The translations under genes and the position numbers were made by a program. A stretch of 32,000 nt of DNA from Candidatus Kuenenia stuttgartensis (GTDB lineage Bacteria > Planctomycetota > Brocadiia > Brocadiales > Brocadiaceae). The stretch spans positions 1,140,001-1,172,000 of the forward strand of contig NZ_LT934425.1 of the NCBI RefSeq assembly GCF_900232105.1, read 5' to 3'. Shown here in pieces: positions 972-31,469 of the stretch (its first letter is position 1; every line of letters starts with the position of its first letter). The notes beneath the pieces were generated by a model. That model had not been told where the DNA came from, did no database searches, and worked only from the letters and a program-made list of their open reading frames with translations.

Positions 972-978
972 TCTATTT

Positions 979-3408
979 ATGGAAAGATATATTTGTATTC
1001 ACGGCCATTTTTATCAACCGCCAAGAGAAAATCCCTGGCTGGAAGATGTGGAACTTCAGGATTCGGCATATCCCTATCATGACTGGAATGAGAGAATAAC
1101 CGCCGAGTGTTATGCACCGAATGCTGCTTCGAGCATTCTCGACGTTGACGGAAGAATAGTAGATATCGTAAATATATATTCAAAGATAAGCTTTAACTTC
1201 GGCCCTACCCTGCTTTCATGGATGGAAAAGCATAAACCAGGCGTTTACCAGGCAATTCTTGAAGCTGACAAATTGAGCCGTGAACATTTTTCCGGGCATG
1301 GCTCAGCTTTGGCTCAAATATACAACCACATGATCATGCCACTTGCCAATAAAAGAGACAAGTATACGCAGGTTATATGGGGACTAAGGGATTTTCAATC
1401 AAGATTCGGAAGAGATGCGGAAGGCATGTGGCTTCCGGAAACTGCCGTAAATACCAAAACCCTTGAGGTACTGGTGGAACTGGGAATAAAATTCACCATA
1501 CTGGCGCCCCGCCAGGCCCAGAAAATGAAAAGAATGGAGAGCCATGCTTGGAAAGATATGGGAAACGGGGAAATAGACCCTACAACACCCTATCTTTGCA
1601 GACTCCCCTCAGGACGAAGCATTTGCATCTTTTTTTACGACGGGCCTATTTCACAGGACCTCGCATTTGGCGGTTTGCTGGAAAATGGAGAAAATTTCGC
1701 AACTCGATTGCTTTCCGCATTTACCGAAAACAGGGACTGGCCTCAGCTTGTGCATATTGCAACAGATGGCGAAACATACGGACATCACCATTTTAAAGGG
1801 GATATGGCGCTTGCGTACTGCCTATATCATATAGAGTCAAAAAATCTGGCGAAAATTACAAATTATGGGGAGTATCTCGAGAAACATCCGCCAAAATTCG
1901 AGGCGGAAATAAAAGAAAATACTTCATGGAGCTGTATTCACGGAATTGAAAGATGGAAAAATAATTGCGGATGTTGTTCCGGCAGCCATCCAGGCTGGAC
2001 ACAGGAATGGCGCACACCTCTTAGGGCTACTATGAATGCCCTGAGAGACAAACTGGCAGCCATTTATGAAGCAGAAGCCGGCAAATATTTTAAAGACCCA
2101 TGGGTTACGAGGAATGCCTATATTGAAATTATCCTGAACAGAAAGGAAAATGCGGTTCGCAGTTTTATCGAAAAGCAAACAATTACGGCGCCTACAAAAG
2201 AAGAAATAACAAAAATCCTGAAACTCCTTGAAATACAGCGGAATGCCATGCTGATGTACACCAGTTGCGGATGGTTTTTCGATGAGATTTCCGGCATTGA
2301 AACAGTGCAGATTATCAAGTATGCCGCAAGGGCAATTCATCTCGCAGAAGAAATTTCAGACTCCGCCATTGAGACGGAATACCGTGCGCTTTTAAAAAAC
2401 ATAAAGAGCAATGTGCCAAAATACGAAAACGGCGACAGAATATATGAATTATTTGTAATGCCCAGCAAAATAGACCTTTTTCATGTATGCGCCCACTATG
2501 CAATTTCCTCCCTTTTTGAAGATATTCGGGAAAAAGCGCCAAGTTATTGTTATTCTGTAACAACCGAAAAATATGAACAGCGGTACGCGGGGAGAGTAAA
2601 ACTCGCTTTAGGGAAAATGCATATAGTATCAACCATCACATGGGAGGAGGTGGAGACAGTGTTCGCAGCGCTCCATTTAGGCGACCATAATGTAAATGGT
2701 GGCGTAAAATGTTTTACCACTGAACAGGAATTATTACACATGTTTCAGGAGATCGGGAATATTTTTGACAGAGGTGAAATCTCAGAAGTTATAAGACTTA
2801 TGAACAACTATTTTGGCGCCCATAGCTATTCTCTGTGGCATCTGTTTACAGACAGGAAAAGGATGATTTTAGATCAAATCCTGCAATCCACAATGAAGGA
2901 AATAGAAGTTTCATTCAGGATGATTTATAAAAACAATTATTCCTTGCTGAATTTTCTCCATTATCTGCAGACCCCCCCGCCTCGTCCACTTTTTTTAACT
3001 GCAGAATATACGGTAAATAGAGATTTAATAAATATTTTTTCCCTAGAAGAAGAAATGAATCTTGAAAAACTTGAAAACCTCATCAACGAAGCAAAACGCT
3101 GGTCATTTGCCATTGATAAAAATGCCACTGGCTTTGCGGCAAATGTATGGATAAACTCACACATGGAACGGTTACGAAAGAAACCAAGCGATATCAGTCT
3201 TGTTGAGGAAATCGACGCCGTGATAAAACTATTAAACTCTCTCTCCGTAAAGCTGGACCTGTGGGAGGCGCAAAATATTTATTTCCATATCGGAAAAAAC
3301 ATTTATCACACAATGAAAGAAAAGTCATTAACCGAAGACCCTCGTTTTAGAAGATGGGAAGAGGCATTTAAAAAACTGGGATATTATCTTGGGGTGAAGG
3401 TGTCATAG
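979..3408 (+). CDS. glycoside hydrolase family 57 protein with DUF3536-like C-terminal region
   Basis: 809 aa. N-terminus MERYICIHGHFYQPPRENPW is the GH57 signature. It has the candidate nucleophile region EGMWLPETAV and acid/base region HIATDGETYGHH. SCGWFFDEISGIE is typical of the DUF3536 extension. It starts 8 nt after the treZ stop. Confidence 0.85.
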   Translation: MERYICIHGHFYQPPRENPWLEDVELQDSAYPYHDWNERITAECYAPNAASSILDVDGRIVDIVNIYSKISFNFGPTLLSWMEKHKPGVYQAILEADKLSREHFSGHGSALAQIYNHMIMPLANKRDKYTQVIWGLRDFQSRFGRDAEGMWLPETAVNTKTLEVLVELGIKFTILAPRQAQKMKRMESHAWKDMGNGEIDPTTPYLCRLPSGRSICIFFYDGPISQDLAFGGLLENGENFATRLLSAFTENRDWPQLVHIATDGETYGHHHFKGDMALAYCLYHIESKNLAKITNYGEYLEKHPPKFEAEIKENTSWSCIHGIERWKNNCGCCSGSHPGWTQEWRTPLRATMNALRDKLAAIYEAEAGKYFKDPWVTRNAYIEIILNRKENAVRSFIEKQTITAPTKEEITKILKLLEIQRNAMLMYTSCGWFFDEISGIETVQIIKYAARAIHLAEEISDSAIETEYRALLKNIKSNVPKYENGDRIYELFVMPSKIDLFHVCAHYAISSLFEDIREKAPSYCYSVTTEKYEQRYAGRVKLALGKMHIVSTITWEEVETVFAALHLGDHNVNGGVKCFTTEQELLHMFQEIGNIFDRGEISEVIRLMNNYFGAHSYSLWHLFTDRKRMILDQILQSTMKEIEVSFRMIYKNNYSLLNFLHYLQTPPPRPLFLTAEYTVNRDLINIFSLEEEMNLEKLENLINEAKRWSFAIDKNATGFAANVWINSHMERLRKKPSDISLVEEIDAVIKLLNSLSVKLDLWEAQNIYFHIGKNIYHTMKEKSLTEDPRFRRWEEAFKKLGYYLGVKVS

Positions 3409-3410
3409 AT

Positions 3411-3440
3411 TGTGGAGACAACGCATGCGTTGTCTCTACA
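3411..3440. repeat. REP-like palindrome, copy 1 (perfect 22-bp palindrome GAGACAACGCATGCGTTGTCTC at 3415-3436, framed GTGG...CTAC)
   Basis: Checked base by base as self-complementary. An identical 22-mer recurs at 3777-3798. It lies 3 nt after the GH57 stop. Confidence 0.85.
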
Positions 3441-3473
3441 ATTTGTGTCAAAAGAACATTTTGTAAAAAAATA

Positions 3474-3803
3474 ATGGCTGAAAAATTTCAAAATAAATAC
3501 CGAATACCATCTACCCGGCTACAAAATTGGAATTACGGGTGGGCAGGCGCACATTTTATAACCATTTGCACGGCAAACAGAGAATATTTTTTTGATAAAA
3601 TAAATAATGGCATTCTGCAATTATCTAATGTTGGGGTAATTGCAAATGTATTGTGGTATGAAATTAAAAACCACACAACAAATGTTGAATTGGGGACATT
3701 TATTGTTATGCCCAATCACGTTCATGGTATATTGGTTTTGAATGGAAATAACAACAACACCGACACAACCGTAGTAGAGACAACGCATGCGTTGTCTCTC
3801 TAA
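3474..3803 (+). pseudogene. truncated REP-associated tyrosine transposase (RAYT / IS200-like Y1 HUH transposase), N-terminal ~109 aa only
   Basis: QNKYRIPSTRLQNWNYGWAGAHFITICTANREYFF and the HUH motif MPNHVHGILVL match RAYT-type proteins. The ORF stops right after the palindrome-encoded VVETTHALSL. The C-terminal half that should carry the catalytic Tyr is not found in any frame downstream. Confidence 0.7.
3774..3800. repeat. REP-like palindrome, copy 2 (same 22-mer at 3777-3798, preceded by GTAG)
   Basis: Identical to 3415-3436. The similarity continues a few bases beyond it (..TCT.AA..GTGTCA in both copies). It forms the last codons of the RAYT fragment. Confidence 0.85.
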
Positions 3804-3885
3804 AGTGTCACCAAATAGCAAATCGTAATAACAATTCCCGGTTGGGAACGGAAGTGAAATAATTTTTAAAATGTAAACAATCTCT

Positions 3886-5385
3886 ATGTACAAAAGAAGA
3901 AGCGGCATATTACTACATATAACATCACTCCCATCGCCATATGGCATAGGAGATTTTGGGCCATTCGCCTACAAATTCATCGACTTCCTGGCAGAAACGA
4001 AGCAGTGTTTATGGCAAATCCTGCCGTTAAATCCCACATCCCTCCCCTATGGAAACAGCCCCTATAGCAGTTGCTCTGCCTTTGCAGGAAACCCTATCGT
4101 AATAAGCCCGGACATGCTAGTGGAAGATGGACTGCTTGCCAAGCCGGATATTGAAGGCGGCAGACGCTTGCCGAATAATCGGACGGATTACGCAAATACT
4201 ACCGTCTATAAGGAAGGCATTCTTCAAAAGGCATATAAAAATTTTCAAATACAGAAAAAAGAAAAATATGCCTTTCCGTTATTCTGCGAACAGAACGCTC
4301 ATTGGCTGGATGATTACACACTATTTATTGCCCTTAAAGAATATTTTCAGGGAAAAGTATGGAGCGACTGGCCTGCGGAAATAAAGCACAGAAAACCTGA
4401 CGCAATGGTTGAATGGAGAGAAAAATTAAAAGAACGAACGGAAAAAGAAAGGTTTATCCAGTACATATTCTTTAAGCAATGGCACAAGCTCAAAGAGTAC
4501 TGCAATAAAAAAAACATACAAATAATCGGAGATATTCCTATTTATGTTACGTATGACAGCGCTGATGTCTGGTCGCATCCGGAATTATTTAAATTAGATG
4601 AAAACAAACAACCATCATTCGTTGCGGGGGTGCCGCCGGATTATTTCAGTGAAACAGGACAAAAATGGGGAAACCCTATTTATACGTGGGATTTTCATAA
4701 AGAAACGGAGTTTTTGTGGTGGATCAAACGTATAGAACACAACATGAAGCTCTTTGATATTGTCCGATTAGACCATTTCAGGGGTTTCGTTGCGTATTGG
4801 GAGATCCCTGCGCACGAAGAAACGGCTATTAATGGCACATGGGTTGAAGCTCCTGTTGAAGACTTTTTTACCACCATTTTTAAACACTTTCCTAATTTAC
4901 CCCTTATTGCAGAGGACCTCGGCACCATAACACCGGAAGTAAAACTCGTTATGCAAATGTTTCAATTTCCCGGTATGAAACTTCTCCTGTTTGCCTTTGG
5001 CGATGATGTAGCAAAAAATCCTTATGTACCACATAATTATGAGAAAAACTGCGTGGTATATACCGGAACACATGACAACAATACCATAAAAGGGTGGTTT
5101 AAAAATGAGACAAACGAAGAAACACGAAAAAAACTTTTCAAATATCTTGGAAGAGATGTTTCCGAAACAAATGTGTGTCGGGAATTAATACGACTAGCAA
5201 TGATGTCCGTTGCAAACACGGCGATCATTCCTATGCAGGACATCCTTGAACTTGACGAAGAAGCCAGGATGAATTTACCGGCAACCACTGAAAATAACTG
5301 GGCATGGAGACTGCTTTCCGAACAGCTCACGCCATCCGTAACGAATGCACTTAGAGAAATTACCGGAATTTACGGTAGGAGCTGA
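3886..5385 (+). CDS. malQ: 4-alpha-glucanotransferase (amylomaltase, GH77)
   Basis: 499 aa. RRSGILLHITSLPSPYGIGDFG N-terminus, IGDIPIYV, VRLDHFRGF and YTGTHDNNT are classical MalQ motifs. Confidence 0.9.
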   Translation: MYKRRSGILLHITSLPSPYGIGDFGPFAYKFIDFLAETKQCLWQILPLNPTSLPYGNSPYSSCSAFAGNPIVISPDMLVEDGLLAKPDIEGGRRLPNNRTDYANTTVYKEGILQKAYKNFQIQKKEKYAFPLFCEQNAHWLDDYTLFIALKEYFQGKVWSDWPAEIKHRKPDAMVEWREKLKERTEKERFIQYIFFKQWHKLKEYCNKKNIQIIGDIPIYVTYDSADVWSHPELFKLDENKQPSFVAGVPPDYFSETGQKWGNPIYTWDFHKETEFLWWIKRIEHNMKLFDIVRLDHFRGFVAYWEIPAHEETAINGTWVEAPVEDFFTTIFKHFPNLPLIAEDLGTITPEVKLVMQMFQFPGMKLLLFAFGDDVAKNPYVPHNYEKNCVVYTGTHDNNTIKGWFKNETNEETRKKLFKYLGRDVSETNVCRELIRLAMMSVANTAIIPMQDILELDEEARMNLPATTENNWAWRLLSEQLTPSVTNALREITGIYGRS

Positions 5386-5386
5386 T

Positions 5387-8300
5387 ATGATACAAGCACA
5401 CTTTCGCACCCCACGCATACCTATTGCCACCTACAGATTACAACTCAATAAACATTTTACCTTCCATGACGCAAAAGAAATAGTCGCCTATCTGCATGCT
5501 TTGGGCATAAGCGATATATATTGTTCTCCTTACCTGAAGGCCAGGGAGGGCAGCCTTCACGGGTATGACATCGTTGACAACCATTCATTGAATCCTGAAA
5601 TCGGCACAGAACAGGAAATGGATGAATTATCCCGCGAGCTTGAGCATTATGGAATGGGGCACATATTTGATCTGGTGCCAAACCATATGGGTATTGCCGA
5701 TAAAGAAAATGCATGGTGGATGGATGTGCTGGAAAACGGGATGAGTTCCTGTTATGCGAATTTTTTCGATATAGACTGGGATCCTATAAAGGATGAATTA
5801 AAAAATAAAATACTCCTTCCCGTCCTGGGAGATCAATACGGCAACGTCCTTGATAATCAGGAATTAACCCTGACGTTTGAAAACGGCTCTTTTTTTATAC
5901 TTTACTACCATCACAAATTCCCCATACGACCACAAACATATCCGGAGATTTTAAAATACCGACTGGAGGAATTAGAAAAAACCTTACCGGAGGAAAACCT
6001 TCATCTGACGGAGTTTTTAAGCATTTTAACCGCTATTGACCATCTTCCCGCATACACGGAAACAGCAGAAGAAAAAATCAGGGAACGACGACGCGAAAAA
6101 GAGGTGATTAAAAAACGACTCCACACCCTTTACAACGAAAGCACGGAGATCCGAAATTTTATCGATAAAAATGTGCTGCTGTTTAACGGACAAAAAGGAG
6201 GCACGGAAAGCTTCGATCTCCTCGACAATCTGCTGGATAAACAGGTGTACCGGCTTTCCCACTGGCGAGTCGCCACCGAGGAGATTAATTACCGGCGGTT
6301 TTTTGATATAAGCGAACTCGCAGCAACCAGGGTAGAAGAGCCAGACGTCTTTCGGGAAACCCACGAACTTGTGTTTCGCCTCATCCGGCAAGGTAAAGTA
6401 ACAGGGCTGCGGGTAGATCATCCCGATGGATTATACTGTCCGCCTGAATATTTTAAAGAATTACAAAAGAACTGCTATCTCCTTACTTTTGGTGGAAACG
6501 GGAAAAATTCAAAAAATAATCGCGCATCAGAGGATGAACAATCAGAGGAAAGGGCGGCGCTGACAAAGCAATACCATGAGATACTTGCAAGGGAACCGCA
6601 CTATAAACCATTCTATATTGTGGGAGAAAAAATACTGGGAAGGTCAGAAAGGATACCGGAAGACTGGCCGATTTTTGGCACAACAGGATACGACTTTATT
6701 GCCACGGTGAACGGCATATTTGTTGAAACAAAGAATGCAAAGGAATTTGACAAAATATACTCCAGGTTTATTAAAGAGACGATACACTTTCATGAGATTG
6801 TCTATGAAAAAAAGAGGCTCATTATGCAAGTGGCAATGTCTAGCGAAATCAACACACTGGGGCACTATCTGAACCGTATCTCTGAAAAAAACAGGCATAC
6901 CAGAGATTTTACGCTCAATAGCCTGACCTACGCAATTATTGAAGTAATCGCATGTTTTCCCGTATACCGGACATACATTCATTCCTCAGAGGTAAACGAA
7001 CCGGATAAACGTTATATTGAACATGCTGTTTCTAAAGCAAGGCAAAAAAATCCCGCCCTTAATGAATCGATTTTTTTCTTCCTTAAAGACGTGCTTCTCA
7101 ACAATTATCCCGGATATTTTAACGAGGAAGGCAAAAAAGCATGGCTTAATTTTACCATGAAATTTCAACAAATTACGGGCCCGGTTATGGCAAAAGGGGT
7201 AGAGGATACTGTTTTTTATGTATACAACCGCCTCATTTCACTGAACGAAGTTGGCGGCAGTCCCGATTGGTTTGGGACTTCAATCGAAGCCTTTCACGGA
7301 CAAAATACGGAAAGGGCAAAATCATGGCAACATTCCATGTTAGCCACTTCCACACATGATACCAAACGAAGCGAAGACGTCAGGGCGCGCATCAACGTCC
7401 TCTCCGAAATACCGGCAAAATGGAGAGAATGTCTGATAAAATGGAGCAGAAACAATAAAAAACACAAATATCTTGCAGGAGACCTAGCCGCCCCTAGCAA
7501 AAATGAAGAGTATTTATTTTATCAAACACTTATTGGCGCCTGGCCTTTTGAACCAATGGACGATTCAGGGTATGAAATCTTCAAAAACAGGATTAAGGAA
7601 TACATGCTCAAAGCGTCACGCGAGGCAAAGGAAAATACGAGCTGGATAAACCCAAATACGGTATATGAAGAGGCATTAATGCACTTCATTGACAACGTAA
7701 TGAACAGGAAGCAAAATAATGCTTTTTTGCATGATTTTAAAAAGTTTCAGGAAGAGATTTCTCATTACGGCATATATAATTCGATCGCACAGACGTTGCT
7801 TAAGATAACTTCTCCCGGAGTCCCGGATATTTATCAGGGGAATGAAATATGGAGTTTTTGCCTCGTGGACCCTGACAACCGCATGCCCGTTGATTATGGC
7901 CTGCGAATGAGCATGTTGGAAGAATTAAAAGAGCAGGAAACAAGCGGCGGAATACAGGCCCTTATTACAAATATGATGAGAAACAGGGAAAAGGGCTTGA
8001 TAAAACTGTATGTTACCCACAAGGCGCTTACCTTCCGGAAAGAGAACAGAGAACTGTTTGAAACCGGGAATTATACGCCCCTTGAGGCTGCGGGAACAAA
8101 AGAAAATAATGTATGTGCATATGCAAGAAACAGCAACACCAAAACCGCGATTGTCGTCGCACCCCGGTTCATGACGCAAATTCTTTCCCATCCGGAAGAA
8201 TTGCCCTTTGGAAAGGACGTGTGGGAGGATACCTTTCTTTCCCTCCCTTTTGAAGATAACGCAGCAGGATACCAAAACATTTTTACAGGAGAGGTTGCTA

Positions 8301-8389
8301 AGACAACTATTCATAATAATGCAAAAGGCATATTCCTTTCAGAAATATTTACCACCTTTCCGGTGGCCCTGATGGAAAGAATTTGTTAA
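5387..8389 (+). CDS. treY: malto-oligosyltrehalose synthase (GH13)
   Basis: ATYRLQLNKHFTFHDAKEIVAYLHALGISDIYCSPYLKAREGSLHGYDIVD and DLVPNHMG are TreY signatures. I place the start at ATG 5387 (MIQAHF..), which has AGGAG at 5377-5381 and follows the malQ stop (5383-5385) by 1 nt. The ORF-track start at 5345 would overlap malQ. Confidence 0.9.
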   Translation: MIQAHFRTPRIPIATYRLQLNKHFTFHDAKEIVAYLHALGISDIYCSPYLKAREGSLHGYDIVDNHSLNPEIGTEQEMDELSRELEHYGMGHIFDLVPNHMGIADKENAWWMDVLENGMSSCYANFFDIDWDPIKDELKNKILLPVLGDQYGNVLDNQELTLTFENGSFFILYYHHKFPIRPQTYPEILKYRLEELEKTLPEENLHLTEFLSILTAIDHLPAYTETAEEKIRERRREKEVIKKRLHTLYNESTEIRNFIDKNVLLFNGQKGGTESFDLLDNLLDKQVYRLSHWRVATEEINYRRFFDISELAATRVEEPDVFRETHELVFRLIRQGKVTGLRVDHPDGLYCPPEYFKELQKNCYLLTFGGNGKNSKNNRASEDEQSEERAALTKQYHEILAREPHYKPFYIVGEKILGRSERIPEDWPIFGTTGYDFIATVNGIFVETKNAKEFDKIYSRFIKETIHFHEIVYEKKRLIMQVAMSSEINTLGHYLNRISEKNRHTRDFTLNSLTYAIIEVIACFPVYRTYIHSSEVNEPDKRYIEHAVSKARQKNPALNESIFFFLKDVLLNNYPGYFNEEGKKAWLNFTMKFQQITGPVMAKGVEDTVFYVYNRLISLNEVGGSPDWFGTSIEAFHGQNTERAKSWQHSMLATSTHDTKRSEDVRARINVLSEIPAKWRECLIKWSRNNKKHKYLAGDLAAPSKNEEYLFYQTLIGAWPFEPMDDSGYEIFKNRIKEYMLKASREAKENTSWINPNTVYEEALMHFIDNVMNRKQNNAFLHDFKKFQEEISHYGIYNSIAQTLLKITSPGVPDIYQGNEIWSFCLVDPDNRMPVDYGLRMSMLEELKEQETSGGIQALITNMMRNREKGLIKLYVTHKALTFRKENRELFETGNYTPLEAAGTKENNVCAYARNSNTKTAIVVAPRFMTQILSHPEELPFGKDVWEDTFLSLPFEDNAAGYQNIFTGEVAKTTIHNNAKGIFLSEIFTTFPVALMERIC

Positions 8390-10920: not shown

Positions 10921-11823
10921 TTACGCCTTCATCTTCATCTTCACTTTTACATCTTTAATCTCTTCAAATGTCTGACCTGCACCAGGCAACTCACCGGCGC
11001 CTGAACCACCTTGTATGGCAGCACTCATCCTCTTTGCGCCCCGTTCATCCATGTAGGTAGCAAACCAATAGAGGAATGTTACAAAGAATCCACCTCCCAC
11101 AATATTACCCAAGGTAACCGAAACAAGGTTCCATCCGAACATCTTGCCGAAGTTGATAACAGCAGGGTCATGAGGCAATAAACATGCCAGCGTCATAATA
11201 GACATATTTGCAACACAATGCTCCATACCTGTAGTAACAAAGCAGAACAAGCACCACCAAATCATAATAAGTTTGCCAGAGTCGCTCGTACATCTGAAAC
11301 TACTCCAGACAGCAAGACAAACAAGCCAATTACAAAAAATACCCCTGAAAAACAATTCCCACCATGGCGCATTCATTTTATATGTTGCTACTTTCAGCAA
11401 AAACGACAACCATGGATCTTTGGCAAAAACACCTGTGGGAATAAGCATTAATGCAAACAACATTGAACCTGCCAAATTACCTATATATGTCCAAAACCAC
11501 CCTAACATACTATCACCAAACGTTACTGTACCTCTAAAGCAACCTTTAAAAATCAATAGATTATAACCCGTAAACAGTTCAGCACCGGCAAAAACTACGA
11601 GCGCCAATGCCAGGCCAAAGAATATTCCGGCAGCAATCTTACCCAGCCCTGGATTTATTGCTCCGATAGGAGCCGCAACAATAAATGCAATGAGAACACC
11701 AAACCCAATATAAAAACCTGCCATTACGGAAAGCGTCAAAAAGCCTATAAGGCTATGTTTCATGCAAGTCGCTTTTTTAAGTGAAACCGCCGCAATTGCA
11801 TCAACAGCACCAGTATATAACAT
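10921..11823 (-). CDS. formate/nitrite transporter (FNT) family channel, FocA/NirC-like
   Basis: 300 aa and polytopic. GAELFTG, FCNWLVCLAVW and TGMEHCVANM (central His) are FNT signatures. The AAGGAG RBS lies 8 nt upstream of the start codon. The substrate (formate, nitrite or another anion) cannot be told from sequence. There is an unusual Gly-rich, then Lys/Met-rich C-terminal tail. Confidence 0.88.
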   Translation of the reverse strand: MLYTGAVDAIAAVSLKKATCMKHSLIGFLTLSVMAGFYIGFGVLIAFIVAAPIGAINPGLGKIAAGIFFGLALALVVFAGAELFTGYNLLIFKGCFRGTVTFGDSMLGWFWTYIGNLAGSMLFALMLIPTGVFAKDPWLSFLLKVATYKMNAPWWELFFRGIFCNWLVCLAVWSSFRCTSDSGKLIMIWWCLFCFVTTGMEHCVANMSIMTLACLLPHDPAVINFGKMFGWNLVSVTLGNIVGGGFFVTFLYWFATYMDERGAKRMSAAIQGGSGAGELPGAGQTFEEIKDVKVKMKMKA

Positions 11824-20293: not shown

Positions 20294-21364
20294 TTATTCT
20301 TTCCTGTCGTGTTCCTTACTTTCTCCAGCCCGCTGTTCCAGCAAGGCTCTCGATTTCTCAATCGCTGCATGAAGTTTCTTTTCCAACAACTCTTTTGGAG
20401 GCAATTCGGTTAAATATTCTGCAATCTTAATGGAAGACTTGTTCAACTCCAGCAGTTCAATCTGTTCATGAGCACCTTCAGCACACAGGACCAGTCCAAG
20501 ATGGTCGTTCTCATCCTTTTCCTTTTCGTACTTCTTCAACCAGCGCAGGTAGAGTTCCATCTGTCCCTTGAAGGTAGCTTTAAACTTACCAAGTTTGAGT
20601 TCGACAGCCACCAACCGTTTCAGCTTACGGTGGTAAAAGAGTAAATCGAGGTAGAAGTCTTCGTTATCAATTGCCATTCGCTTCTGTCTGGCAACAAAGG
20701 TAAATCCTGCGCCAAGTTCCAGAATAAAAGATTCCAGTTCCCTTAGAATCGCAGCCTCCATGTCAGATTCGCTGTATATATCTTTCAGATTTAAAAAATC
20801 CAGCACGTAGGGATCACGAAAAACAAGGTCTGGTTATATTTTATCGTTAGAACGTAATTCAGCCAATTCGTGCTTTGCCAATTCTTCTGGTTTTCTGAAA
20901 ATAGCCGTGCGCTCATAAAGCATTGAATCGATCTTCTTGCGTAGGGTATGTACACTCCACCGATCTACCCTGCACATTTCAGTGTAAAACTCTCGTTGCA
21001 AAGGTTCTTTTAAGGGAATTAGTGCGATAAAATGAGTCCAGCTTAAATGCCGTATCAGCGATACGACAATCTCTTTGGATGGGTAAACATCTGCGAATTG
21101 AATCATTCTGCGCAGATTTTTTCCGGAAAAATTGTTGCCATATTCCAATATTAATTGTCGTGACAGTGATACGATAATCTCTCTGCCATATTCCGCCCGT
21201 TTTCCTTTCAGAATTTATTCATTAACCCGCTTTCCAATCTGCCAGTAAAGCATGGTTATAGCGGCATTGACCGTTGAGGCAACTGTATGGCGGGCTTCCT
21301 CGATAAGGCAACGAACGTCCTTATAAAAGTTGCTTACAACAATATCTTCCACATTTTTTTTCAT
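20294..21364 (-). pseudogene. DUF1016 / YhcG-like PD-(D/E)XK nuclease family gene with two in-frame TAA codons
   Basis: A single frame reads MKKNVEDIVVSNFYKDVRCLIEEARHTVASTVNAAITMLYWQIGKRVNE*ILKGKRAEYGREIIVSLSRQLILEYGNNFSGKNLRRM...SNDKI*PDLVFRDPYVLDFLNL...DLLFYHRKLKRLVAVELKLGKF.. The stops are at 21215-21217 and 20834-20836. There are no frameshifts. The family was recognised from these motifs. Confidence 0.8.
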
Positions 21365-21451
21365 CACTTTATATCCTGCCCTGATTTTGTTTTGACCGAA
21401 CCTACCCTGAAGTGTATGTCCCTGACTATACCCCTCCGTACAGGAATATTT

Positions 21452-25514: not shown

Positions 25515-25663
25515 ACGATATTCTCTCCCTTCCCTAAAAAAATAGTTTATTTATTTTGACAATGATGTGTTTTCCGGTTTTAAATAATTGAAGAAATGAA
25601 GGACATATTTTATATCAGATAGTAAAATGTGATTACAATAAAATTTTCATTTCCCGTATGGAA

Positions 25664-25712
25664 GTCGTTGGTCATTAGTCATTGGTCAGCAGTCAGCAGT
25701 CAGCAGTCAGCA
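25664..25712. repeat. tandem heptamer array GTCGTTG GTCATTA GTCATTG (GTCAGCA)x4
   Basis: Seven contiguous GTCNNNN units, the last four identical, in the divergent CBS / GDH-MurI intergenic region. Confidence 0.9.
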
Positions 25713-25739
25713 GTTTAGTTTTTTAAAAAAGCAAAAGCG

Positions 25740-25771
25740 CTCGTTCCAAGTCTGTCCAGCTTGGGAACGAG
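25740..25771. repeat. REP-like hairpin CTCGTTCCAAG-N9-CTTGGGAACGAG (one-base bulge)
   Basis: Inverted arms read directly. It is followed at 25781-25802 by CGGGCAAATGCTTCGCCCCTAC, which is GTAG-prefixed on the minus strand. Confidence 0.65.
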
Positions 25772-26000
25772 ATCGAAAAACGGGCAAATGCTTCGCCCCT
25801 ACAGTTTTACAATTCCCCCGGATCAGGGTTCTGCATTTAGGTTCTGGACTTTAAAATACCTCCCCCTTGTTTTTTTTGTTAACTTTATCAGAAAAAGGAA
25901 ATATCTTGAGAAGTATTGAAATATTTAGTTAACTAAAACAATCAATACATTCCTTATTCCTGCAAATAAAACAAATTTTCAATGTCCGGCACATATACCC

Positions 26001-28751
26001 ATGAATTCGTCCCTTTTGTTTAGAAACAGAAAAATTAAAAATCCGCTTTTAAAAAACGTTCACAACCGGCTTGACGAAGCGATTGAAGTCATTAGGGAAA
26101 AAGATCCCGTTTTTTACAAGAATTGCCATAAATTATTTCCCGTTCTTAAGACGCCTGAGCATGTCTGGAAAATACCTTTGGAATTCTACACTGATGGCGG
26201 CGTAAAATTAGTTCTGCGAATAACGGTAGTTTTCCACAATCTTGCCCTTGGCCCGCCTAAAGGTGGTATCTTGTTAATCCCGCCCCATATTCTTGGGGAT
26301 GGCTTTTTTGAACTTTTTGACCAATTACGGAAACAAAAGACATCTCTTGATGAAATACGTGAATTTTGTTTTGAATGGGTCTCTGAGGGAATTGAAGCCC
26401 TTTCCATTGTAACCACGTTAAAACTTGCTCTATATTCCCTCCCGCTTGGTGGAGGAATGTGCGGAATTTTTCTTGGCAAACCGGAATATGACAGGGGAGA
26501 ACTATTTCTTAAATCCATTGACCTGACAAATAATGAAAAAAGGAGATTGGTCAGGGAAGTAGGTTACTTACTTACAAAAGAAGGGATTATGGGGTATGAT
26601 GCATATTCCCCCGGCCCGGACATAGGCACCGATGGCGCAATGATGGATTCTATTGCAGATGGCCATTTCAGGGCATTAACTGAGATGGAAAAAATCAGAG
26701 AAAAAGGGCTTTTGGAAAAATTAAAAAGCATCAGGGATGCTGAGATTGTATGGACAGTAGATTTGCCTTATTTAAAAACAGCAGCGGCGTTTGCAAAGGA
26801 AATAAAAATACCGGCGGAAGCAAAAAGAAGCGTCCCGGAATTGGGCGCCGTTACGTTTAAAACTCACGGCGGATTAGCAGGCAGAGGAGAAGCCACAGCA
26901 TTTGCTGCGGTGGAAATCACGAATATTCTGGTTTGGCACAATGAAGATCCAAAAGACTATTTAAAAGTACGGATTGGAAGGGAAAGAAAGAATTATTTGG
27001 CGGAAAAGACGGTTGTTATTCACGGTTTTGACAACATCGGGTTAAACGCGTCACAGTTCTTTTCACGAAAAGGAGCAAAAGTAGTTGCGGTAAGCGAATA
27101 TGAACGGAGAGAAAAGAAATTAGTGGCGGTGTATAATTATGAGGGGATAGACGTAGATGCGTTAATCAGGCATAAAGAAACATGCGGCGGCATTTATGGC
27201 TTCCGGGGAGCAAGTGTTTATGCCGAACCCTATCAACTACTGAATGAAAAGGTTGACATCGTTTTTCTGGCTGCCATAGAAAACCAGATACACGACCATA
27301 ATGCTGAAAGCATTCAGGCCCGTTATGTTATTTCTGCTGCAAATGCAGGCATCTCCCAGGAAGGGTATCACATACTGATAAAAAAAGGGAAGATTGTTGC
27401 CAGAGATTCCATTGTAAAATCCGGAGGAATTATCGCATCTTACCTTGAAAAAATACAAAATGCCCAGAATGACTACTGGGAAAAAGAATACGTCTTTAAA
27501 GATATTATATCGAGAATCGAAAACGTTTTAAAAAATAATGTATTCAAAAACCTGGTGGAAAAACACTCCATTGATTTATCGGTCGCAGGCGATGTGGCGG
27601 CTATCAAAAGAATCACCAGCACCATGGAGGCAAAAAATGCACCGCAAAAGAAAATGAAAGACAAGAAACCCTTAATAATAGGCATCTTTGATTCCGGACA
27701 GGGCGGGATTATTGTAACGGAAAAACTTAACAGGATACTGCCCGTGGGAAATATAAAACTGCTGCTTTTTACCGACAAGGCGAATTTCCCGTTCGGACAA
27801 AAATCAAAGGAGGAAATAAATGACATCACCTTTCGGGCAGTTCATGAAATAAACGAACGCTGCAAAACCATGCATCAATCAAACGGGTTTTTCTACCGGT
27901 TTATTTATAATACTCCGTACTTTCTTAAAACAGTATTCATCTGGCTGGGGATCATTCCCAGAGACGTCATCGTCTGCTTTGCCTGCAATACGGTGGATAC
28001 CATGGTTAATCATAAAAAATTACGTATCCGTTTTCCACACATGCAATTTATTGGCCCTGTAAAGAAAACATTATTAAAAATAAACGCGCTGCCAAAAGAC
28101 GCAAGGATTGGCATTATTGGCACGGTAGGAACAATAAAAAGCGGCATTTATGAAAAACGTATCAGAGAAGCAGGATACCATGTGTTGGCAAAGCCAACCC
28201 CATTACTGGCGGTCTTATCGGAAATGTTATACAAAAAAAGCTTTGATACGGAAGAAAAACAAAAGGAATTTTACAAAACAGCAAGAGACCTCATCTATGT
28301 AAATTTAAAAGAATTTATAAAAAAAAATACTATTTCTCACCTGTGTCTTGCCTGCACGCATTACGATTATTTAAAAAGCACACTAAAAGACCTCTTCGGC
28401 GAAGTGGAATTTATCAGCACGGTGGAAACCGTAATTGAAGAAGTCCAGGACATCATAAATCAGATACCATTGCAAATGGGGGAGCGGGAACTGGAATTTA
28501 TAAAAAGGGCAAGAAAAGGGAAAGATTTAGACCGCCTGATCCTTGAAGATATTATTTCCTCCCAAAACCTGTCCCCGGAAGAAAAGGTAAAATTAGGAGA
28601 CAGGGAAGACCAAATCAAAAACATACTGCAAAATAAATTAGAGGGAATTACGGCTGATGAAATTGAAGAAATGAAGTTTTTTGATAGTAATAGTGTTAAA
28701 GTAAAATATAACGGAAAGGAAAGGCTCGTAAGCCTTTTTCATTTGCAGTAA
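26001..28751 (+). CDS. fusion protein: Glu/Leu/Phe/Val-dehydrogenase-like domain (~aa 50-540) plus glutamate-racemase (MurI)-like domain (~aa 555-830) plus ~90-aa acidic tail
   Basis: GDH-like part: LGPPKGGI (K87), TTLKLAL, LPLGGGMCG (M153 where GGxKGG carries the catalytic Lys), PGPDIGTD, GGLAGRGEATAFA, HGFDNIG..GAKVVAVSE, and SAANAGIS..KSGGIIASYLEKIQN. MurI-like part: IGIFDSGQGG (27675-), FACNT (Cys662), IIGTVGTIKSGIY, and LACTHY (Cys785). It is a single uninterrupted 916-codon ORF. No clear SD precedes ATG 26001. Confidence 0.8.
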   Translation: MNSSLLFRNRKIKNPLLKNVHNRLDEAIEVIREKDPVFYKNCHKLFPVLKTPEHVWKIPLEFYTDGGVKLVLRITVVFHNLALGPPKGGILLIPPHILGDGFFELFDQLRKQKTSLDEIREFCFEWVSEGIEALSIVTTLKLALYSLPLGGGMCGIFLGKPEYDRGELFLKSIDLTNNEKRRLVREVGYLLTKEGIMGYDAYSPGPDIGTDGAMMDSIADGHFRALTEMEKIREKGLLEKLKSIRDAEIVWTVDLPYLKTAAAFAKEIKIPAEAKRSVPELGAVTFKTHGGLAGRGEATAFAAVEITNILVWHNEDPKDYLKVRIGRERKNYLAEKTVVIHGFDNIGLNASQFFSRKGAKVVAVSEYERREKKLVAVYNYEGIDVDALIRHKETCGGIYGFRGASVYAEPYQLLNEKVDIVFLAAIENQIHDHNAESIQARYVISAANAGISQEGYHILIKKGKIVARDSIVKSGGIIASYLEKIQNAQNDYWEKEYVFKDIISRIENVLKNNVFKNLVEKHSIDLSVAGDVAAIKRITSTMEAKNAPQKKMKDKKPLIIGIFDSGQGGIIVTEKLNRILPVGNIKLLLFTDKANFPFGQKSKEEINDITFRAVHEINERCKTMHQSNGFFYRFIYNTPYFLKTVFIWLGIIPRDVIVCFACNTVDTMVNHKKLRIRFPHMQFIGPVKKTLLKINALPKDARIGIIGTVGTIKSGIYEKRIREAGYHVLAKPTPLLAVLSEMLYKKSFDTEEKQKEFYKTARDLIYVNLKEFIKKNTISHLCLACTHYDYLKSTLKDLFGEVEFISTVETVIEEVQDIINQIPLQMGERELEFIKRARKGKDLDRLILEDIISSQNLSPEEKVKLGDREDQIKNILQNKLEGITADEIEEMKFFDSNSVKVKYNGKERLVSLFHLQ

Positions 28752-28809: not shown

Positions 28810-28844
28810 GGTTCAGGTTTGTAAACCAATGTCATTAAGTTAAG
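28810..28844. repeat. left arm of a split 35-bp inverted repeat (GGTTCAGGTTTGTAAACCAATGTCATTAAGTTAAG)
   Basis: Bases 28823-28844 are the exact reverse complement of 31436-31457 (22/22). The outer 11-13 bp (GGGTTCAGGTT / AACCTGAACCC) continue the symmetry with one indel. Confidence 0.85.
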
Positions 28845-28888
28845 AATTATTGTAACACTTTGATTTTAAAAAAAACGTATTACCGATA

Positions 28889-28947
28889 AGCTACGTAGGA
28901 GCGGCCTGTCTTCCTGTCAATCATATACAGGCCGTTCCTACGTAGCT
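28889..28947. repeat. REP-like hairpin with 21-bp arms (AGCTACGTAGGAGCGGCCTGT / ACAGGCCGTTCCTACGTAGCT, 1 mismatch, 17-nt loop)
   Basis: Arms compared base by base. It contains a GTAG...CTAC core (28895-28941). Confidence 0.8.
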
Positions 28948-29080
28948 ATTTACCTGTTGAATTTTATTGCGCTACAAACAGACCGCCCCTAAAGGGGCTA
29001 CATTGTTTTTTATGTCCCCTTGGATTTTTCAAATAACTAAGGTGCTATGAATTATTTGATCAAAAACAACCCCCCTTTTC

Positions 29081-31418
29081 CCCCCTTAATAAACTGGGGA
29101 TGACCCATATTTTTTGCTGGACACCGTGTTAACCGTATGTTACACTGTGTACATGCATAGAGTAGGAGGTCGAATATTTTCAGATGATGTAATAAAGCGT
29201 TTATCAGAAACTATCCAAAAGGAACCGTGCCTATCGCGTCGTAAACTGTCGCGTCTGGTATGCGAATGGATGGACTGGCGGAATCAAGCGGGCCGTTTGC
29301 AAGAGATGAGTTGTCGCAAGGCGTTGTTGGAATTGGATCGTCGTAAAGAGATCAATCTTCCAAAGGTGAACAGGCATTATGCATTTCAAAAAGTCAATAA
29401 ACCTGCGGAGGCGCCTCCGATTGCGGAAGTGTCATGCGAGCTAGCGGAGTTGGGTGACGTAGAGATTATACGGGTTACAACGAGAATCCATTCGAAACTT
29501 TGGCGTAGCATGTTAGAAGCGCATCATTATCTTGGAAGTGGGCCCCTATGCGGGGCGCAACTTCGGTATCTTGTACGCAGTGAACATTACGGATGGATAG
29601 GAGGGCTAAGTTATAGTGCCTGTGCCAGACGGGTGGAAAGTCGCGACGAGTGGATAGGATGGACGGAGGAAGCACGTAAGCGGAATCATACGTTTGTTAT
29701 CAATAACAGTAGGTATTTAATAGCGCCTACGGTAAGAGTAAAATGTTTGGCATCGCATGTATTGGCAAAATGCCAAACACGTTTGGTAGATGATTGGGAA
29801 AGAGTGTATAAATATCGTCCTGTACTTTTAGAAACCTATGTGGAACGAGGACGGTTTTCCGGAAGCTGTTATCGGGCAGCTAACTGGAAGTATGTAGGAG
29901 GCACGGAAGGTCGAGGACGAAAAGGAACAGGTGCAACGGTCAAAGACGTTTATGTTATGCCGTTGCAAAAGAAATGGCAGGCGGTGTTGTGTTGTTGTGC
30001 CGATGGCAAAGTACATGTTCGCCAAAGAGTGGCACAAAAAGAGCCTCGGGATTGGATAGAAGCGGAACTTGGAGGAACAAAATTGGGCGATGCACGATTG
30101 ACCTCAAGACTTTTAGAAATGACAGGTATGTTTTATGACAAACCTTTGGCAAACATTCCGCAGGCGTGCGGCTCAGTCAGTGCGACTAAGGCTGCATACC
30201 GATTCCTTGACAATGAGAATGTAGATTGGAAGGCGATATTGCAAGCTCATTATGAGGCCACGGAAGAGCGTGTGAAGGAGAATAGTTTGGTTTTGGTAGC
30301 GCAAGATACTACGACTCTGAATTATAGCACACATCCGAATACGCAGGGGTTAGGGCCGATAGGTACTAAGAGTAAAAAAGTTCGTGGACTGATGGTGCAT
30401 GATACGATGGCGTTTACTGAAAGTGGCACACCCTTGGGACTTCTGAATGTGCAATGCTGGGCGCGGGACGGAATAGGCAGCAAACATGAACGACACAAGA
30501 AGCCTATCGAAGAGAAGGAAAGCTGGAAATGGGTGGAGAGTTACCATGCAGTATCGCAAGTACAGAAACGCTGTCGAAACAAATCTTTGCTGGTGGTTGT
30601 GGCAGATCGTGAGGCCGATATTCACGAGGTATTCGCTGAGCAGTATAATACGCCTGATGGCGCTCAGTTGCTGATCCGTGCAGAACGTTCGCGCAATAGA
30701 AAGGTTGTTGATGATAAAGAATCATGCGAGTTTTTGTGGACTAAACTGGAACAGCAACCGGCGATGCCTGTTACGCTACGCCCACCTATGCTAAAAAAGA
30801 ATATGCCTGCGGTCAGGGTGTGGGCGGTGCTGGCGCAGGAAGTCAATCCGCCTATCGGAATTGATGGGTTAGAATGGATGCTGTTAACCACAGTTGCGGT
30901 TAAGCAAGAAAAAGATGCTTACGAACGTTTGGAATGGTATGCTCGCCGATGGGGTATTGAGTGTTATCATCGTATTATCAAGAGCGGTTGTCGTGTCGAG
31001 GCCCGGCAGTTGGAGAGTGCTCGTCGTCTATGCAACGCTTTGGCCATTGATATGATTATAGCTTGGCGTATCCATTACCTGACTACTTTAGGACAAGAAA
31101 CACCTGATGTCCCTTGTACTGTCTACTTCAGCGATTCTGAATGGAAAGCATTGACAACTTTTGCGAACAAGGTCAAGGAGCCTCCTGATTTACCTCCAAG
31201 CCTCAATGATGCCGTGCGGCTTTTAGGTAAACTTGGCGGTCATCTGGGCCGCCGTGGTGATGGCCATCCCGGAAGTGAAGTACTTTGGCGAGGCATGTCA
31301 CGTTTGGCTGATATTGAAGTTGCTTACGAACTTTACACCACTTAGCCTTCAGCTCAATTGGCCGTACAACTACGGTGCTCTTGAAATTTGTGGGTAAAGA
31401 TTAGCTTTATTAAGGGGG
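29081..31418 (+). mobile_element. IS4-family (IS50/Tn5-like) insertion sequence, ~2.34 kb; boundaries tentative
   Basis: 13-bp terminal inverted repeat CCCCCTTAATAAA (29081-29093) / TTTATTAAGGGGG (31406-31418), with further imperfect subterminal symmetry (..ACCCA.., ..CACCG). It holds a single transposase ORF and looks visibly more GC-rich than its surroundings. A possible 5-bp CTTTT flank (29075-29079 / 31420-31424) is too low in complexity to trust. Confidence 0.6.
29153..31345 (+). CDS. DUF4338 (DruA-like) domain fused to a Tn5/IS50-type DDE transposase
   Basis: The C-terminal ~450 aa are collinear with Tn5 Tnp: WIEAELGGTKLGDARL (DNA-binding N-terminus), AQDTTTL (D), VADREADIHE (D), YARRWGIECYHRIIKSG (YREK/E), and the dimerisation tail LGKLGGHLGRRGDGHPG. 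The N-terminal ~300 aa (HHYLGSGPLCGAQLRYLV..RDEWIGW..VINNSRYLIAP..LASHVL..DDWERVYKYRPVLLETYVE.GRFSGSCYRAANWKYVGGTEGRGR) match my memory of DUF4338. I place the start at ATG 29153; TTG 29114 is the ORF-track alternative. Confidence 0.8.
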   Translation: MHRVGGRIFSDDVIKRLSETIQKEPCLSRRKLSRLVCEWMDWRNQAGRLQEMSCRKALLELDRRKEINLPKVNRHYAFQKVNKPAEAPPIAEVSCELAELGDVEIIRVTTRIHSKLWRSMLEAHHYLGSGPLCGAQLRYLVRSEHYGWIGGLSYSACARRVESRDEWIGWTEEARKRNHTFVINNSRYLIAPTVRVKCLASHVLAKCQTRLVDDWERVYKYRPVLLETYVERGRFSGSCYRAANWKYVGGTEGRGRKGTGATVKDVYVMPLQKKWQAVLCCCADGKVHVRQRVAQKEPRDWIEAELGGTKLGDARLTSRLLEMTGMFYDKPLANIPQACGSVSATKAAYRFLDNENVDWKAILQAHYEATEERVKENSLVLVAQDTTTLNYSTHPNTQGLGPIGTKSKKVRGLMVHDTMAFTESGTPLGLLNVQCWARDGIGSKHERHKKPIEEKESWKWVESYHAVSQVQKRCRNKSLLVVVADREADIHEVFAEQYNTPDGAQLLIRAERSRNRKVVDDKESCEFLWTKLEQQPAMPVTLRPPMLKKNMPAVRVWAVLAQEVNPPIGIDGLEWMLLTTVAVKQEKDAYERLEWYARRWGIECYHRIIKSGCRVEARQLESARRLCNALAIDMIIAWRIHYLTTLGQETPDVPCTVYFSDSEWKALTTFANKVKEPPDLPPSLNDAVRLLGKLGGHLGRRGDGHPGSEVLWRGMSRLADIEVAYELYTT

Positions 31419-31435
31419 ACTTTTGCGGCCGTTTG

Positions 31436-31469
31436 CTTAACTTAATGACATTGGTTTGCAACCTGAACC
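31436..31469. repeat. right arm of the split 35-bp inverted repeat (CTTAACTTAATGACATTGGTTTGCAACCTGAACC)
   Basis: Reverse complement of 28810-28844 (see there). Its inner half doubles as the left terminus of the 170-bp structured repeat. Confidence 0.85.

Follow-up and report, generated by a model that had tools for sequence, protein, structure and literature searches.

A glutamate dehydrogenase-like module lacking the catalytic lysine, fused to a predicted MurI-type glutamate racemase in Candidatus Kuenenia stuttgartiensis

Hexameric Glu/Leu/Phe/Val (ELFV) dehydrogenases, such as the glutamate dehydrogenases (GDHs) Escherichia coli GdhA, Clostridium symbiosum GDH and Thermotoga maritima GDH (1B26), are composed of two Pfam domains, and domain I forms the core of the hexamer. 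Glutamate racemases of the MurI/RacE type (TIGR00067; Bacillus subtilis RacE 1ZUW, Bacillus anthracis RacE2 2GZM, E. coli MurI 2JFN) are cofactor-independent enzymes with a two-cysteine catalytic set, and stand-alone MurIs are tightly controlled, which avoids a drain of the glutamate pool. The B. subtilis trigger enzymes RocG and GudB provide a precedent for a GDH as a glutamate-dependent regulator, with a GDH fold that reports glutamate availability to another protein and RocG controlling GltC (PMC6794564). Here we analyze a gene from the anammox bacterium Candidatus Kuenenia stuttgartiensis in which a GDH-like and a racemase part are joined in one protein. It is located on contig NZ_LT934425.1, within a stretch of 32,000 nucleotides (positions 1,140,001 to 1,172,000 of the forward strand) that is designated as the window and to which all coordinates refer.

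The fusion contains both Pfam domains of the ELFV dehydrogenases in the same order and still has their general-base Asp, both substrate-carboxylate Lys, the GGxxxS serine, the GGSxxR arginine and most Rossmann hallmarks, but the whole family differs from them by Met-Cys in place of Lys-Gly, three insertions and the fused racemase, and this species in addition by D344. With MurI/RacE it shares the predicted fold, the two-Cys set and the substrate-binding residues; unlike them it has a PFG motif, insertions of ~30 and ~12 aa, an extension of ~45 aa and ~550 aa fused to the N-terminus, and it is not the housekeeping copy. The likeness to RocG is a functional analogy only, since RocG retains catalysis and exerts its effect on the transcription factor GltC in trans, whereas the GDH module of the fusion appears to be disabled and is covalently joined to its presumed target. 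The reading that we favor, and for which we see about an even chance, is that of an accessory glutamate racemase for which a catalytically dead module of GDH origin serves as gate or scaffold. The features of the gene are:

26001..28751, + strand: whole pseudo-GDH/glutamate racemase fusion gene (KSMBR1_1085 'gdh_1' = kuste3038; SOH03588.1)
26001..26990, + strand: GDH domain I-like region, residues 1-330 (PF02812, 34.2 bits; alignment to E. coli GdhA)
26457..26462, + strand: Met153-Cys154 replacing the catalytic Lys-Gly of GG(G/A)KGG (Met-Cys in 21/21 family sequences)
26991..27644, + strand: GDH domain II of the Rossmann NAD(P)-binding type, residues 331-548 (PF00208, 126.7 bits)
27645..27668, + strand: short Lys-rich linker from the last GDH helix to the first racemase strand, ~residues 549-556 (alignment and secondary structure of the model)
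27669..28619, + strand: predicted MurI-type glutamate racemase domain, ~residues 557-873 (D564, S565, C662, N663, T664, T711, S714, E741, C785, T786, H787)
27855..27956, + strand: helical insertion, ~residues 619-652, the least conserved part of the protein (alignment and model)
28620..28748, + strand: C-terminal extension beyond the MurI fold, ~residues 874-916 (profile alignment and model)

The gene and its dehydrogenase half

The open reading frame (ORF) starts with ATG and encodes a single uninterrupted protein of 916 aa; a stop codon or frameshift that would split the two halves, which had been named as a possible refutation, is absent. The locus tag was assigned by gene order: because the order in the window (radical-SAM miaB_2, argG, a CBS protein, the fusion gene and transposases, with FetAB-like and xdh genes further on) agrees with the published table of strain MBR1 (miaB_2, argG, hypothetical, gdh_1, transposase), the gene corresponds to KSMBR1_1085 and kuste3038. 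An identical protein is present in public K. stuttgartiensis records (SOH03588.1 and others) and on contigs in 76 blocks of the sequence collection, 23 of which contigs were examined, and an orthologous, uninterrupted ORF is found in at least six further lineages. The fusion is genuine, and an assembly artefact is ruled out. Its public names range from 'strongly similar to glutamate dehydrogenase' and 'aspartate/glutamate racemase family protein' to 'glutamate dehydrogenase/leucine dehydrogenase/glutamate racemase', and the text of the MBR1 transcriptome paper counts gdh_1 as a low-affinity ammonium-assimilating GDH. Judged from its sequence, the designation as an ordinary ammonium-assimilating dehydrogenase is almost certainly wrong.

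The assignment of a GDH-like and a racemase domain, proposed from motif order in the original prediction, stands far beyond chance in Pfam and solved-structure matches, and all motifs are located at precisely the positions initially reported. Those of the GDH part are GPPKGG (residues 84-89; K87, 26259-26261), GGGMCG (150-155; M153, 26457-26459), PGPDIGTD (204-211), GGLAGRGEATAFA (290-302), HGFDNIG (341-347) and KSGGIIASYLE (473-483). ELFV_dehydrog_N (PF02812) matches residues 129-220 (E=2.3e-8; gathering score 25.3 bits) and ELFV_dehydrog (PF00208) residues 327-544 (E=1.6e-36; gathering score 23.4 bits), and GDH chains of solved structure match residues ~330-545 with a best E-value of 1.8e-29. 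The best GDH family in NCBIfam, GdhA_Arch, scores 130.4 bits and misses its equivalog cut-off of 750. Residue equivalences were derived from an alignment to E. coli GdhA:

GdhA K92, fusion K87: conserved
GdhA K116, fusion K141: conserved
GdhA K128 (catalytic), fusion M153: replaced
Gly following GdhA K128, fusion C154: replaced
GdhA D166 (general-base Asp), fusion D207: conserved
Arg of GGSLIR in GdhA, fusion R295: conserved
Ser of GGVATS in GdhA, fusion S480: conserved

The glutamate-binding Lys/Lys/Ser set (K87, K141, S480) is thus retained, and the catalytic Lys is missing. MAFFT places M153 opposite K128 of E. coli GdhA, which is equivalent to K125 of C. symbiosum GDH and K102 of AtGDH1 within GG(G/A)KG, and HMMER pairs LGGGMCG with FGGGKGG of the Thermotoga enzyme. 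All matches were re-aligned to a hidden Markov model (HMM) of the family for residue counts, which revealed Met at position 153 and Cys at position 154 in each of the 21 family sequences; among other ELFV domains position 153 is Lys in 93 of 99, and position 154 is Gly in 85. A neighboring Lys that could serve as a substitute, another conceivable refutation, was sought in the family alignment around M153, and none is conserved: K161 is replaced by Glu in other genera. In the mechanism given by the structural study of AtGDH1, the substrate amine is deprotonated by the Asp, iminoglutamate arises by hydride transfer, and the imine is then attacked by a water molecule that the Lys has primed (PMC7326016). 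The lost Lys, which primes water for hydrolysis or formation of the imine, is thus essential for the overall reaction in both directions.

The second difference concerns the dinucleotide-binding motif, which reads G342-F-D344-N-I-G347 in the window protein (D344 at 27030-27032). The Asp is confined to the K. stuttgartiensis clade (13 sequences); the seven other family sequences have Gly at this position, as do 144 of 146 other ELFV domains at the second Gly of GxGxxG. E366 at the end of beta-2 as well as N448, G475, G476 and S480 are present in the Rossmann domain. Domain I has family-specific insertions at ~residues 95-136 and 228-279. Compared with ordinary GDHs there are three insertions in total, which also occur in divergent, Lys-retaining ELFV proteins such as P0028 and P0030 (GGAKGG), and these match the profile over residues ~50-545 in one continuous stretch. 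From the common insertions we conclude that the GDH module is derived from this clade and lost its Lys afterwards. Members of the same insertion-bearing clade are also found inside very large multidomain proteins of 4600-5800 aa (P0029, P0042, P0045), and another one, P0033 (999 aa), has independently acquired Met at the position of the catalytic Lys (LVGAMALN).

The racemase half and selection on both halves

The motifs of the racemase are likewise exactly where they had been located, namely, FDSGQGG at residues 563-569, ACNT at 661-664 (C662, 27984-27986), GTVGT at 707-711 and CTHY at 785-788 (C785, 28353-28355). Pfam Asp_Glu_race (PF01177) matches residues 660-814 and barely exceeds its gathering score (E=1.5e-7; 31.9 vs 31 bits), and MurI chains of solved structure match residues ~552-830 (best E-value 8e-19). 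The identity to stand-alone MurIs amounts to 27-33%. In an alignment of 128 sequences that includes these enzymes, A661, C662, T711, S714, E741, C785, T786 and H787 are invariant, and D564, S565, N663 and T664 are conserved in at least 90%. The whole length of MurI (1-271) aligns to residues 554-873 with a probability of 100% in hhalign. An AlphaFold2 model of residues 546-916, which is based on the deep 128-sequence alignment, has a mean predicted local distance difference test (pLDDT) score of 91.9 and a predicted template modeling (pTM) score of 0.88. In a Foldseek search of this model against the PDB, ranks 1 to 48 are all glutamate racemases, ahead of aspartate racemases, with target-normalized TM scores of 0.68-0.79. 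Alignment and model thus agree in predicting that the C-terminal half has a true MurI fold with all catalytic residues intact.

An insertion of about 35 aa between FDSG and ACNT had been noticed before, and comparison with canonical MurI shows that it is real and ~30-35 aa long. It is limited to the proteins of the Kuenenia/Brocadia type and absent from canonical MurI and from the relatives in Omnitrophota and Scalindua. Its identity ranges from 38 to 62%, and in the model it prolongs a long helix and adds a second one, both packed on the domain. We therefore reject a membrane anchor at this site; the hydropathy maximum (1.85) corresponds to the buried strand preceding C662. A further insertion relative to canonical MurI, ~12 aa in length, follows E741.

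The C-terminus had been described as an acidic tail of ~90 aa. An extension does exist, but about half of this segment is probably the normal C-terminus of MurI, which leaves a true extension of ~45 aa, and the tail is highly charged rather than acidic (17 K+R vs 19 D+E, net -2). In the model, the extension contains a helix end together with a three-stranded beta unit, and a conserved counterpart is present in the relatives from Omnitrophota and Scalindua. The tail is not an independent known domain: it has no Pfam match and no PDB sequence match at E<=10, and half of it aligns to the MurI C-terminus.

The selective constraint on the protein was determined by codon-level comparison with orthologues at a synonymous divergence (dS) of ~1, with the following ratios of nonsynonymous to synonymous substitution (dN/dS):

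GDH domain I: 0.085-0.10
Rossmann domain: 0.09-0.14, and 0.29 in the closest comparison
Racemase: 0.095-0.105
Tail: 0.08-0.11
Helical insertion: up to 0.40

Purifying selection is about equally strong on both halves, and from its low dN/dS we conclude that the catalytically disabled half is kept for a function.

Relatives, second gene copies and genomic neighborhood

An exhaustive profile search over 1.84 billion representatives recovered the full fusion as one single cluster at 50% identity. According to a scan of GTDB genomes and to the cluster names, its members are Kuenenia spp., K. hertensis, metagenome-assembled genomes (MAGs) of Brocadia sp. and Brocadiaceae, and Planctomycetota from Lake Kivu and Rifle groundwater. 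One contig of 1849 bp that was binned as Patescibacteria (JANLHG010000004.1, L022) contains a fragment of the fusion with 67% identity to the Kuenenia protein; a mistake in binning is the most likely reason for this occurrence, rather than a genuine presence outside the Planctomycetes-Verrucomicrobia-Chlamydiae (PVC) group. More distant relatives are confined to anammox lineages and Omnitrophota. They form two groups. One is that of Candidatus Scalindua with two proteins, P0043 (720 aa) and P0062 (911 aa), in which a Lys-less GDH domain I is followed by the racemase and a related tail, and the region of the catalytic Lys reads GGSSSA or GGACCA. The other is that of Omnitrophota, with a homologue that has GGAMCG at the catalytic-Lys motif and an intact GFGKVG; its ORF of at least 1330 aa encodes PTS-HPr, HEAT repeats, the GDH-like domain, the racemase, the tail and a methyltransferase, and a sibling record runs on into a GH77 4-alpha-glucanotransferase.

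The homologues from Scalindua and Omnitrophota (the latter represented by P0298 and the ORF on contig L015) thus share the Lys-less domain I, the racemase Cys pair and a related extension with the fusion, and they differ from it by the missing Rossmann domain and glutamate-binding lysines in Scalindua and by the additional PTS-HPr, HEAT, methyltransferase and GH77 parts in Omnitrophota. The feature common to all members is the combination of a GDH domain I without Lys, the racemase and the extension. The Omnitrophota protein P0026 (539 aa) was rejected as a racemase-only relative: its gene start is mis-called, and the true ORF is the 1330-aa fusion. On the respective contig (L015, DNSN01000018.1, positions 23-4015) the deposited protein starts in the middle of the ORF, which is a mis-annotated start in the public record.

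The architecture is rare. The literature was searched for kuste3038 and kustd1506, for fusions of GDH with a racemase and for anammox D-glutamate, and no publication was found that characterizes the protein or mentions its locus tags, so that the objection of a common and already characterized fusion, raised with the original prediction, is not borne out.

The same prediction had proposed to look for separate copies of both enzymes, and these are indeed annotated. The MBR1 gene table lists a murI (KSMBR1_1293 = kustd1506), known here from its annotation and from published BLAST statistics, and a second gdh (gdh_2, KSMBR1_2236 = kustc0555), known here from its annotation. The study on anammox peptidoglycan assigned kustd1506 as MurI on the basis of 88% coverage, E=2e-24 and 30% identity to the E. 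coli enzyme (PMC4432595, supplement). The alignment of the fusion to E. coli MurI spans 162 columns with 26% gaps and reaches an identity of only 25%, which is far worse than these values; because the match statistics disagree and the locus tags are distinct, we reject an identity of the two and regard kustd1506 and the fusion as different genes. With a separate murI annotated, the fusion does not qualify as the sole essential supplier of D-Glu for peptidoglycan. Its transcript level, in reads per kilobase per million (RPKM), is 31.2 under ammonium limitation and 38.5 under nitrite limitation, without differential expression; murI is transcribed at a similar level (18.2 and 35.5 RPKM), and the respective values for gdh_2 are 58.4 and 49.2 RPKM.

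In four lineages (K. hertensis, the Lake Kivu MAG, a Brocadia-like contig and RIFOXYC2_FULL_41_27) a group of three genes is located upstream of the fusion, which encode a CADD/BesC-like heme-oxygenase-like protein, a 525-aa protein with the PF01645 glutamate-synthase domain and a 170-aa protein of the Rid family. Genes for a PAS histidine kinase and a sigma-54 activator lie ahead of this group in two of the lineages, and on two contigs the heme-oxygenase-like (CADD/PqqC-like) gene has a near-consensus -24/-12 promoter in front of it (GGGCAC-N5-TTGCA/G; L013, 4184-4199; L009, 4448-4463). No sigma-54 promoter was found upstream of the fusion in the window (25515-26000) or directly upstream of the gene in the other lineages, and the window-wide number of sigma-54 motif matches is at chance level (37 vs 26.9 +/- 5.4).

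The K. stuttgartiensis clade has its GltB-like/Rid block ~80 genes away (KSMBR1_1163-1170), and the upstream neighbors of the fusion are argG and the CBS protein. Under nitrite limitation, K. stuttgartiensis transcribes the GltB-like and pqqC-like genes at levels that reach 662-695 RPKM. On its downstream side the fusion still has the ancestral FetAB-like genes, with two insertion sequence (IS) elements intervening in K. stuttgartiensis. The first of them is:

28819..31461, + strand: complete IS4/Tn5-like insertion sequence (26-nt terminal inverted repeats at 28819-28844 and 31436-31461, 96% complementary; transposase ORF 29114-31345)

This element begins 68 nt after the stop codon of the fusion and is absent from Kuenenia sp. 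Bin_40; DruA (PF14236) forms the N-terminal domain of its 743-aa transposase. The IS repeat is presumably the reason why many public contigs stop directly behind the fusion gene. One of the Scalindua homologues adjoins amt, glnK and amt, but the second Scalindua locus has a GNAT gene instead, and we rejected the Amt/P-II adjacency as a conserved clue. Overall, the genomic context hints at glutamate and nitrogen metabolism, and this evidence is not strong.

Possible functions and further observations in the window

Three possibilities had been considered in the original prediction, and the best supported of them is a racemase regulated by a degenerate GDH domain: the catalytic Lys is absent from 21 of 21 sequences, the catalytic set of the racemase is invariant, the predicted MurI fold is canonical and both halves are constrained. 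The protein would then be a cytoplasmic accessory racemase, whose MurI-type domain is permanently tethered to a GDH-derived module without dehydrogenase catalysis. The dead module would act as a ligand-binding and/or oligomerizing device with L-glutamate or 2-oxoglutarate as the probable signals, joined by NAD(P)(H) where the Rossmann motif is intact, and would thereby gate the interconversion of L-Glu and D-Glu by nitrogen and redox status. The Asp, the Ser, both carboxylate-binding Lys and a normal Rossmann fold are still present in the GDH half of most lineages. This reading also draws support from the separate murI and gdh_2 genes, from transcription at a level close to that of murI, from the GltB-like and Rid-family neighbors downstream of a sigma-54 two-component pair and from the RocG/GltC precedent. 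The D-Glu-related role of the fusion would come on top of the supply of peptidoglycan precursors.

Several observations weigh against a racemase that is gated in this way. The score against the MurI equivalog TIGR00067 remains below the threshold (82.9 vs 146.65 bits), and the racemase motif PYG is changed to PFG. The Scalindua versions have neither the Rossmann domain nor equivalents of K87 and K141, and the K87 equivalent is not universal elsewhere, being replaced by Thr in one Brocadia-like sequence, by Met in Omnitrophota and by Gln or His in Scalindua. Given this variability, the function of the family as a whole cannot lie in glutamate binding of the GDH type, and a purely scaffolding role is just as possible. 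Synteny with the upstream gene group is broken in K. stuttgartiensis, Kuenenia sp. Bin_40 and one Brocadiaceae MAG, and the one transcriptome analyzed shows no co-regulation of the partner genes with the fusion. The full-length AlphaFold2 model, based on a family alignment of 10 sequences, has a mean pLDDT of 57.6 with most of the GDH half below 50, and it is unusable for the active-site cleft or for contacts between the domains.

A bifunctional enzyme that aminates 2-oxoglutarate reductively with a non-canonical catalytic residue and channels L-Glu to the racemase site, as the original prediction had considered for the route from 2-oxoglutarate and ammonium to D-Glu, would be compatible with the domain order, the short linker of ~10 aa and the retained substrate-binding residues. 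It is nevertheless disfavored and, in our view, very improbable: the water-priming Lys is gone in the entire family (21/21) with no conserved substitute nearby, the window protein carries D344 instead of Gly in GxGxxG, Rossmann-less relatives exist in Scalindua, and the match to the GDH equivalog reaches 130 bits compared with a cut-off of 750. Another alternative is a dehydrogenase that, because it lacks only the water-priming Lys, catalyzes the half-reaction between L-glutamate and 2-iminoglutarate with NAD(P)(H) and no longer the hydrolysis or formation of the imine, which would be passed to the neighboring Rid-family imine deaminase or obtained from the GltB-like synthase; with the racemase added, this would create a route linking D-Glu, L-Glu, 2-iminoglutarate and 2-oxoglutarate plus ammonium. 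We regard it as unlikely, though several lines of evidence point in its direction: D207, K87, K141, S480, N448 and G475-G476 are retained, GxGxxG is intact in the seven sequences from outside K. stuttgartiensis, the Lys acts after hydride transfer when it primes the water (PMC7326016), and Rid-family and PF01645 genes are located immediately upstream in four lineages. The K. stuttgartiensis clade, which lost this synteny, is also the one with G344D and a Rossmann dN/dS of 0.29 relative to its closest relative. Conversely, the Asp at the second Gly of GxGxxG in the window protein and the Scalindua relatives without Rossmann domain and substrate-binding lysines speak against a half-reaction, free imines hydrolyze spontaneously so that little benefit is obvious, the Rid-like protein misses the cut-off of its family (55.9 vs 106 bits), and synteny inside one bacterial family is a weak sign of functional coupling. 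In a wider version, to which we likewise give a small chance, the GDH half, which has lost only the water-priming Lys and still has the Asp base and the substrate pocket, would be repurposed and not dead, with either hydride transfer between glutamate and 2-iminoglutarate or thiol chemistry on 2-oxoglutarate, in concert with the Rid and GltB-like partners. This may apply to the lineages with an intact Rossmann fold, and the thiol option may operate via the invariant Cys154. If true, repurposed dehydrogenase and racemase would constitute a D/L-glutamate-iminoglutarate module not described before, by which anammox bacteria release or capture ammonium.

Two other explanations were considered. The whole protein might be a non-catalytic sensor or regulator that binds metabolites of the glutamate family and controls, for example, a sigma-54 activator or P-II/Amt without supplying D-glutamate. 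The sigma-54 two-component pair as a conserved neighbor in two to three lineages, the Amt/P-II/Amt genes next to one Scalindua homologue, the fusion of the Omnitrophota homologue to a PTS-HPr domain and HEAT repeats, the RocG/GltC precedent and the low, constitutive expression are in accordance with this explanation. However, both Cys and the D/S/N/T/E/T/H set are invariant over ~60% sequence divergence and into Omnitrophota, which argues for kept catalysis; the Amt adjacency is not conserved at the second Scalindua locus, and the Pfam scan detected no DNA-binding domain. A purely regulatory protein is accordingly doubtful. The same low probability holds for a racemase or epimerase whose substrate is not free glutamate but, for instance, a derivative of it or a different acidic amino acid, delivered or selected by the dehydrogenase-like module. 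The score under the MurI equivalog threshold, the change from PYG to PFG, the ~12-aa insertion after E741, the helical insertion and the C-terminal extension are consistent with an altered specificity, and the supply of D-Glu would already be covered by the separate, presumably canonical murI. Against it stand the full conservation of the residues with D-Glu contacts in MurI enzymes of solved structure, the 48 glutamate racemases that outrank the aspartate racemases in the fold search and the N-terminal FDSGxGG motif of the MurI type. A different amino-acid chemistry, the remaining possibility of the original prediction, is conceivable.

The preferred reading of an accessory racemase under the control of a dead dehydrogenase module has consequences for anammox bacteria, in which ammonium is the energy substrate and glutamate is reported as the main osmolyte. 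Reconstructions of their ammonium assimilation should count gdh_2 only, and the fusion points to a D-glutamate metabolism beyond the supply of peptidoglycan precursors. A fold of central metabolism would have been converted into a pseudoenzyme module and fused to the enzyme that it presumably controls, and the family with an intact, a damaged or no Rossmann domain represents a graded natural series for pseudoenzyme evolution.

The remainder of the window harbors some features of independent interest. The intergenic region between the divergent CBS gene and the fusion contains a tandem heptamer (GTCAGCA) with 4.3 copies and a 100% match (25663-25714), which follows a related AGTCATT array. An alpha-glucan/glycogen cluster (979-8389) comprises GH57 with DUF3536, a GH77 4-alpha-glucanotransferase and a 1014-aa protein of the alpha-amylase family; the presence of GH77 both in this cluster and in the fused Omnitrophota homologue may be a coincidence. 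A gene for a formate/nitrite transporter of the FocA/NirC type (PF01226, E=1.2e-70) is located on the minus strand (10921-11823) and is relevant to nitrite handling in an anammox bacterium. Finally, the YhcG_C/DUF1016 gene (20294-21400, minus strand; compared across contigs L002-L007) is intact with 281 aa in one public contig and split elsewhere, including the window, into 170+90+49 aa or 170+176 aa, which is indicative of pseudogenization at the strain level.

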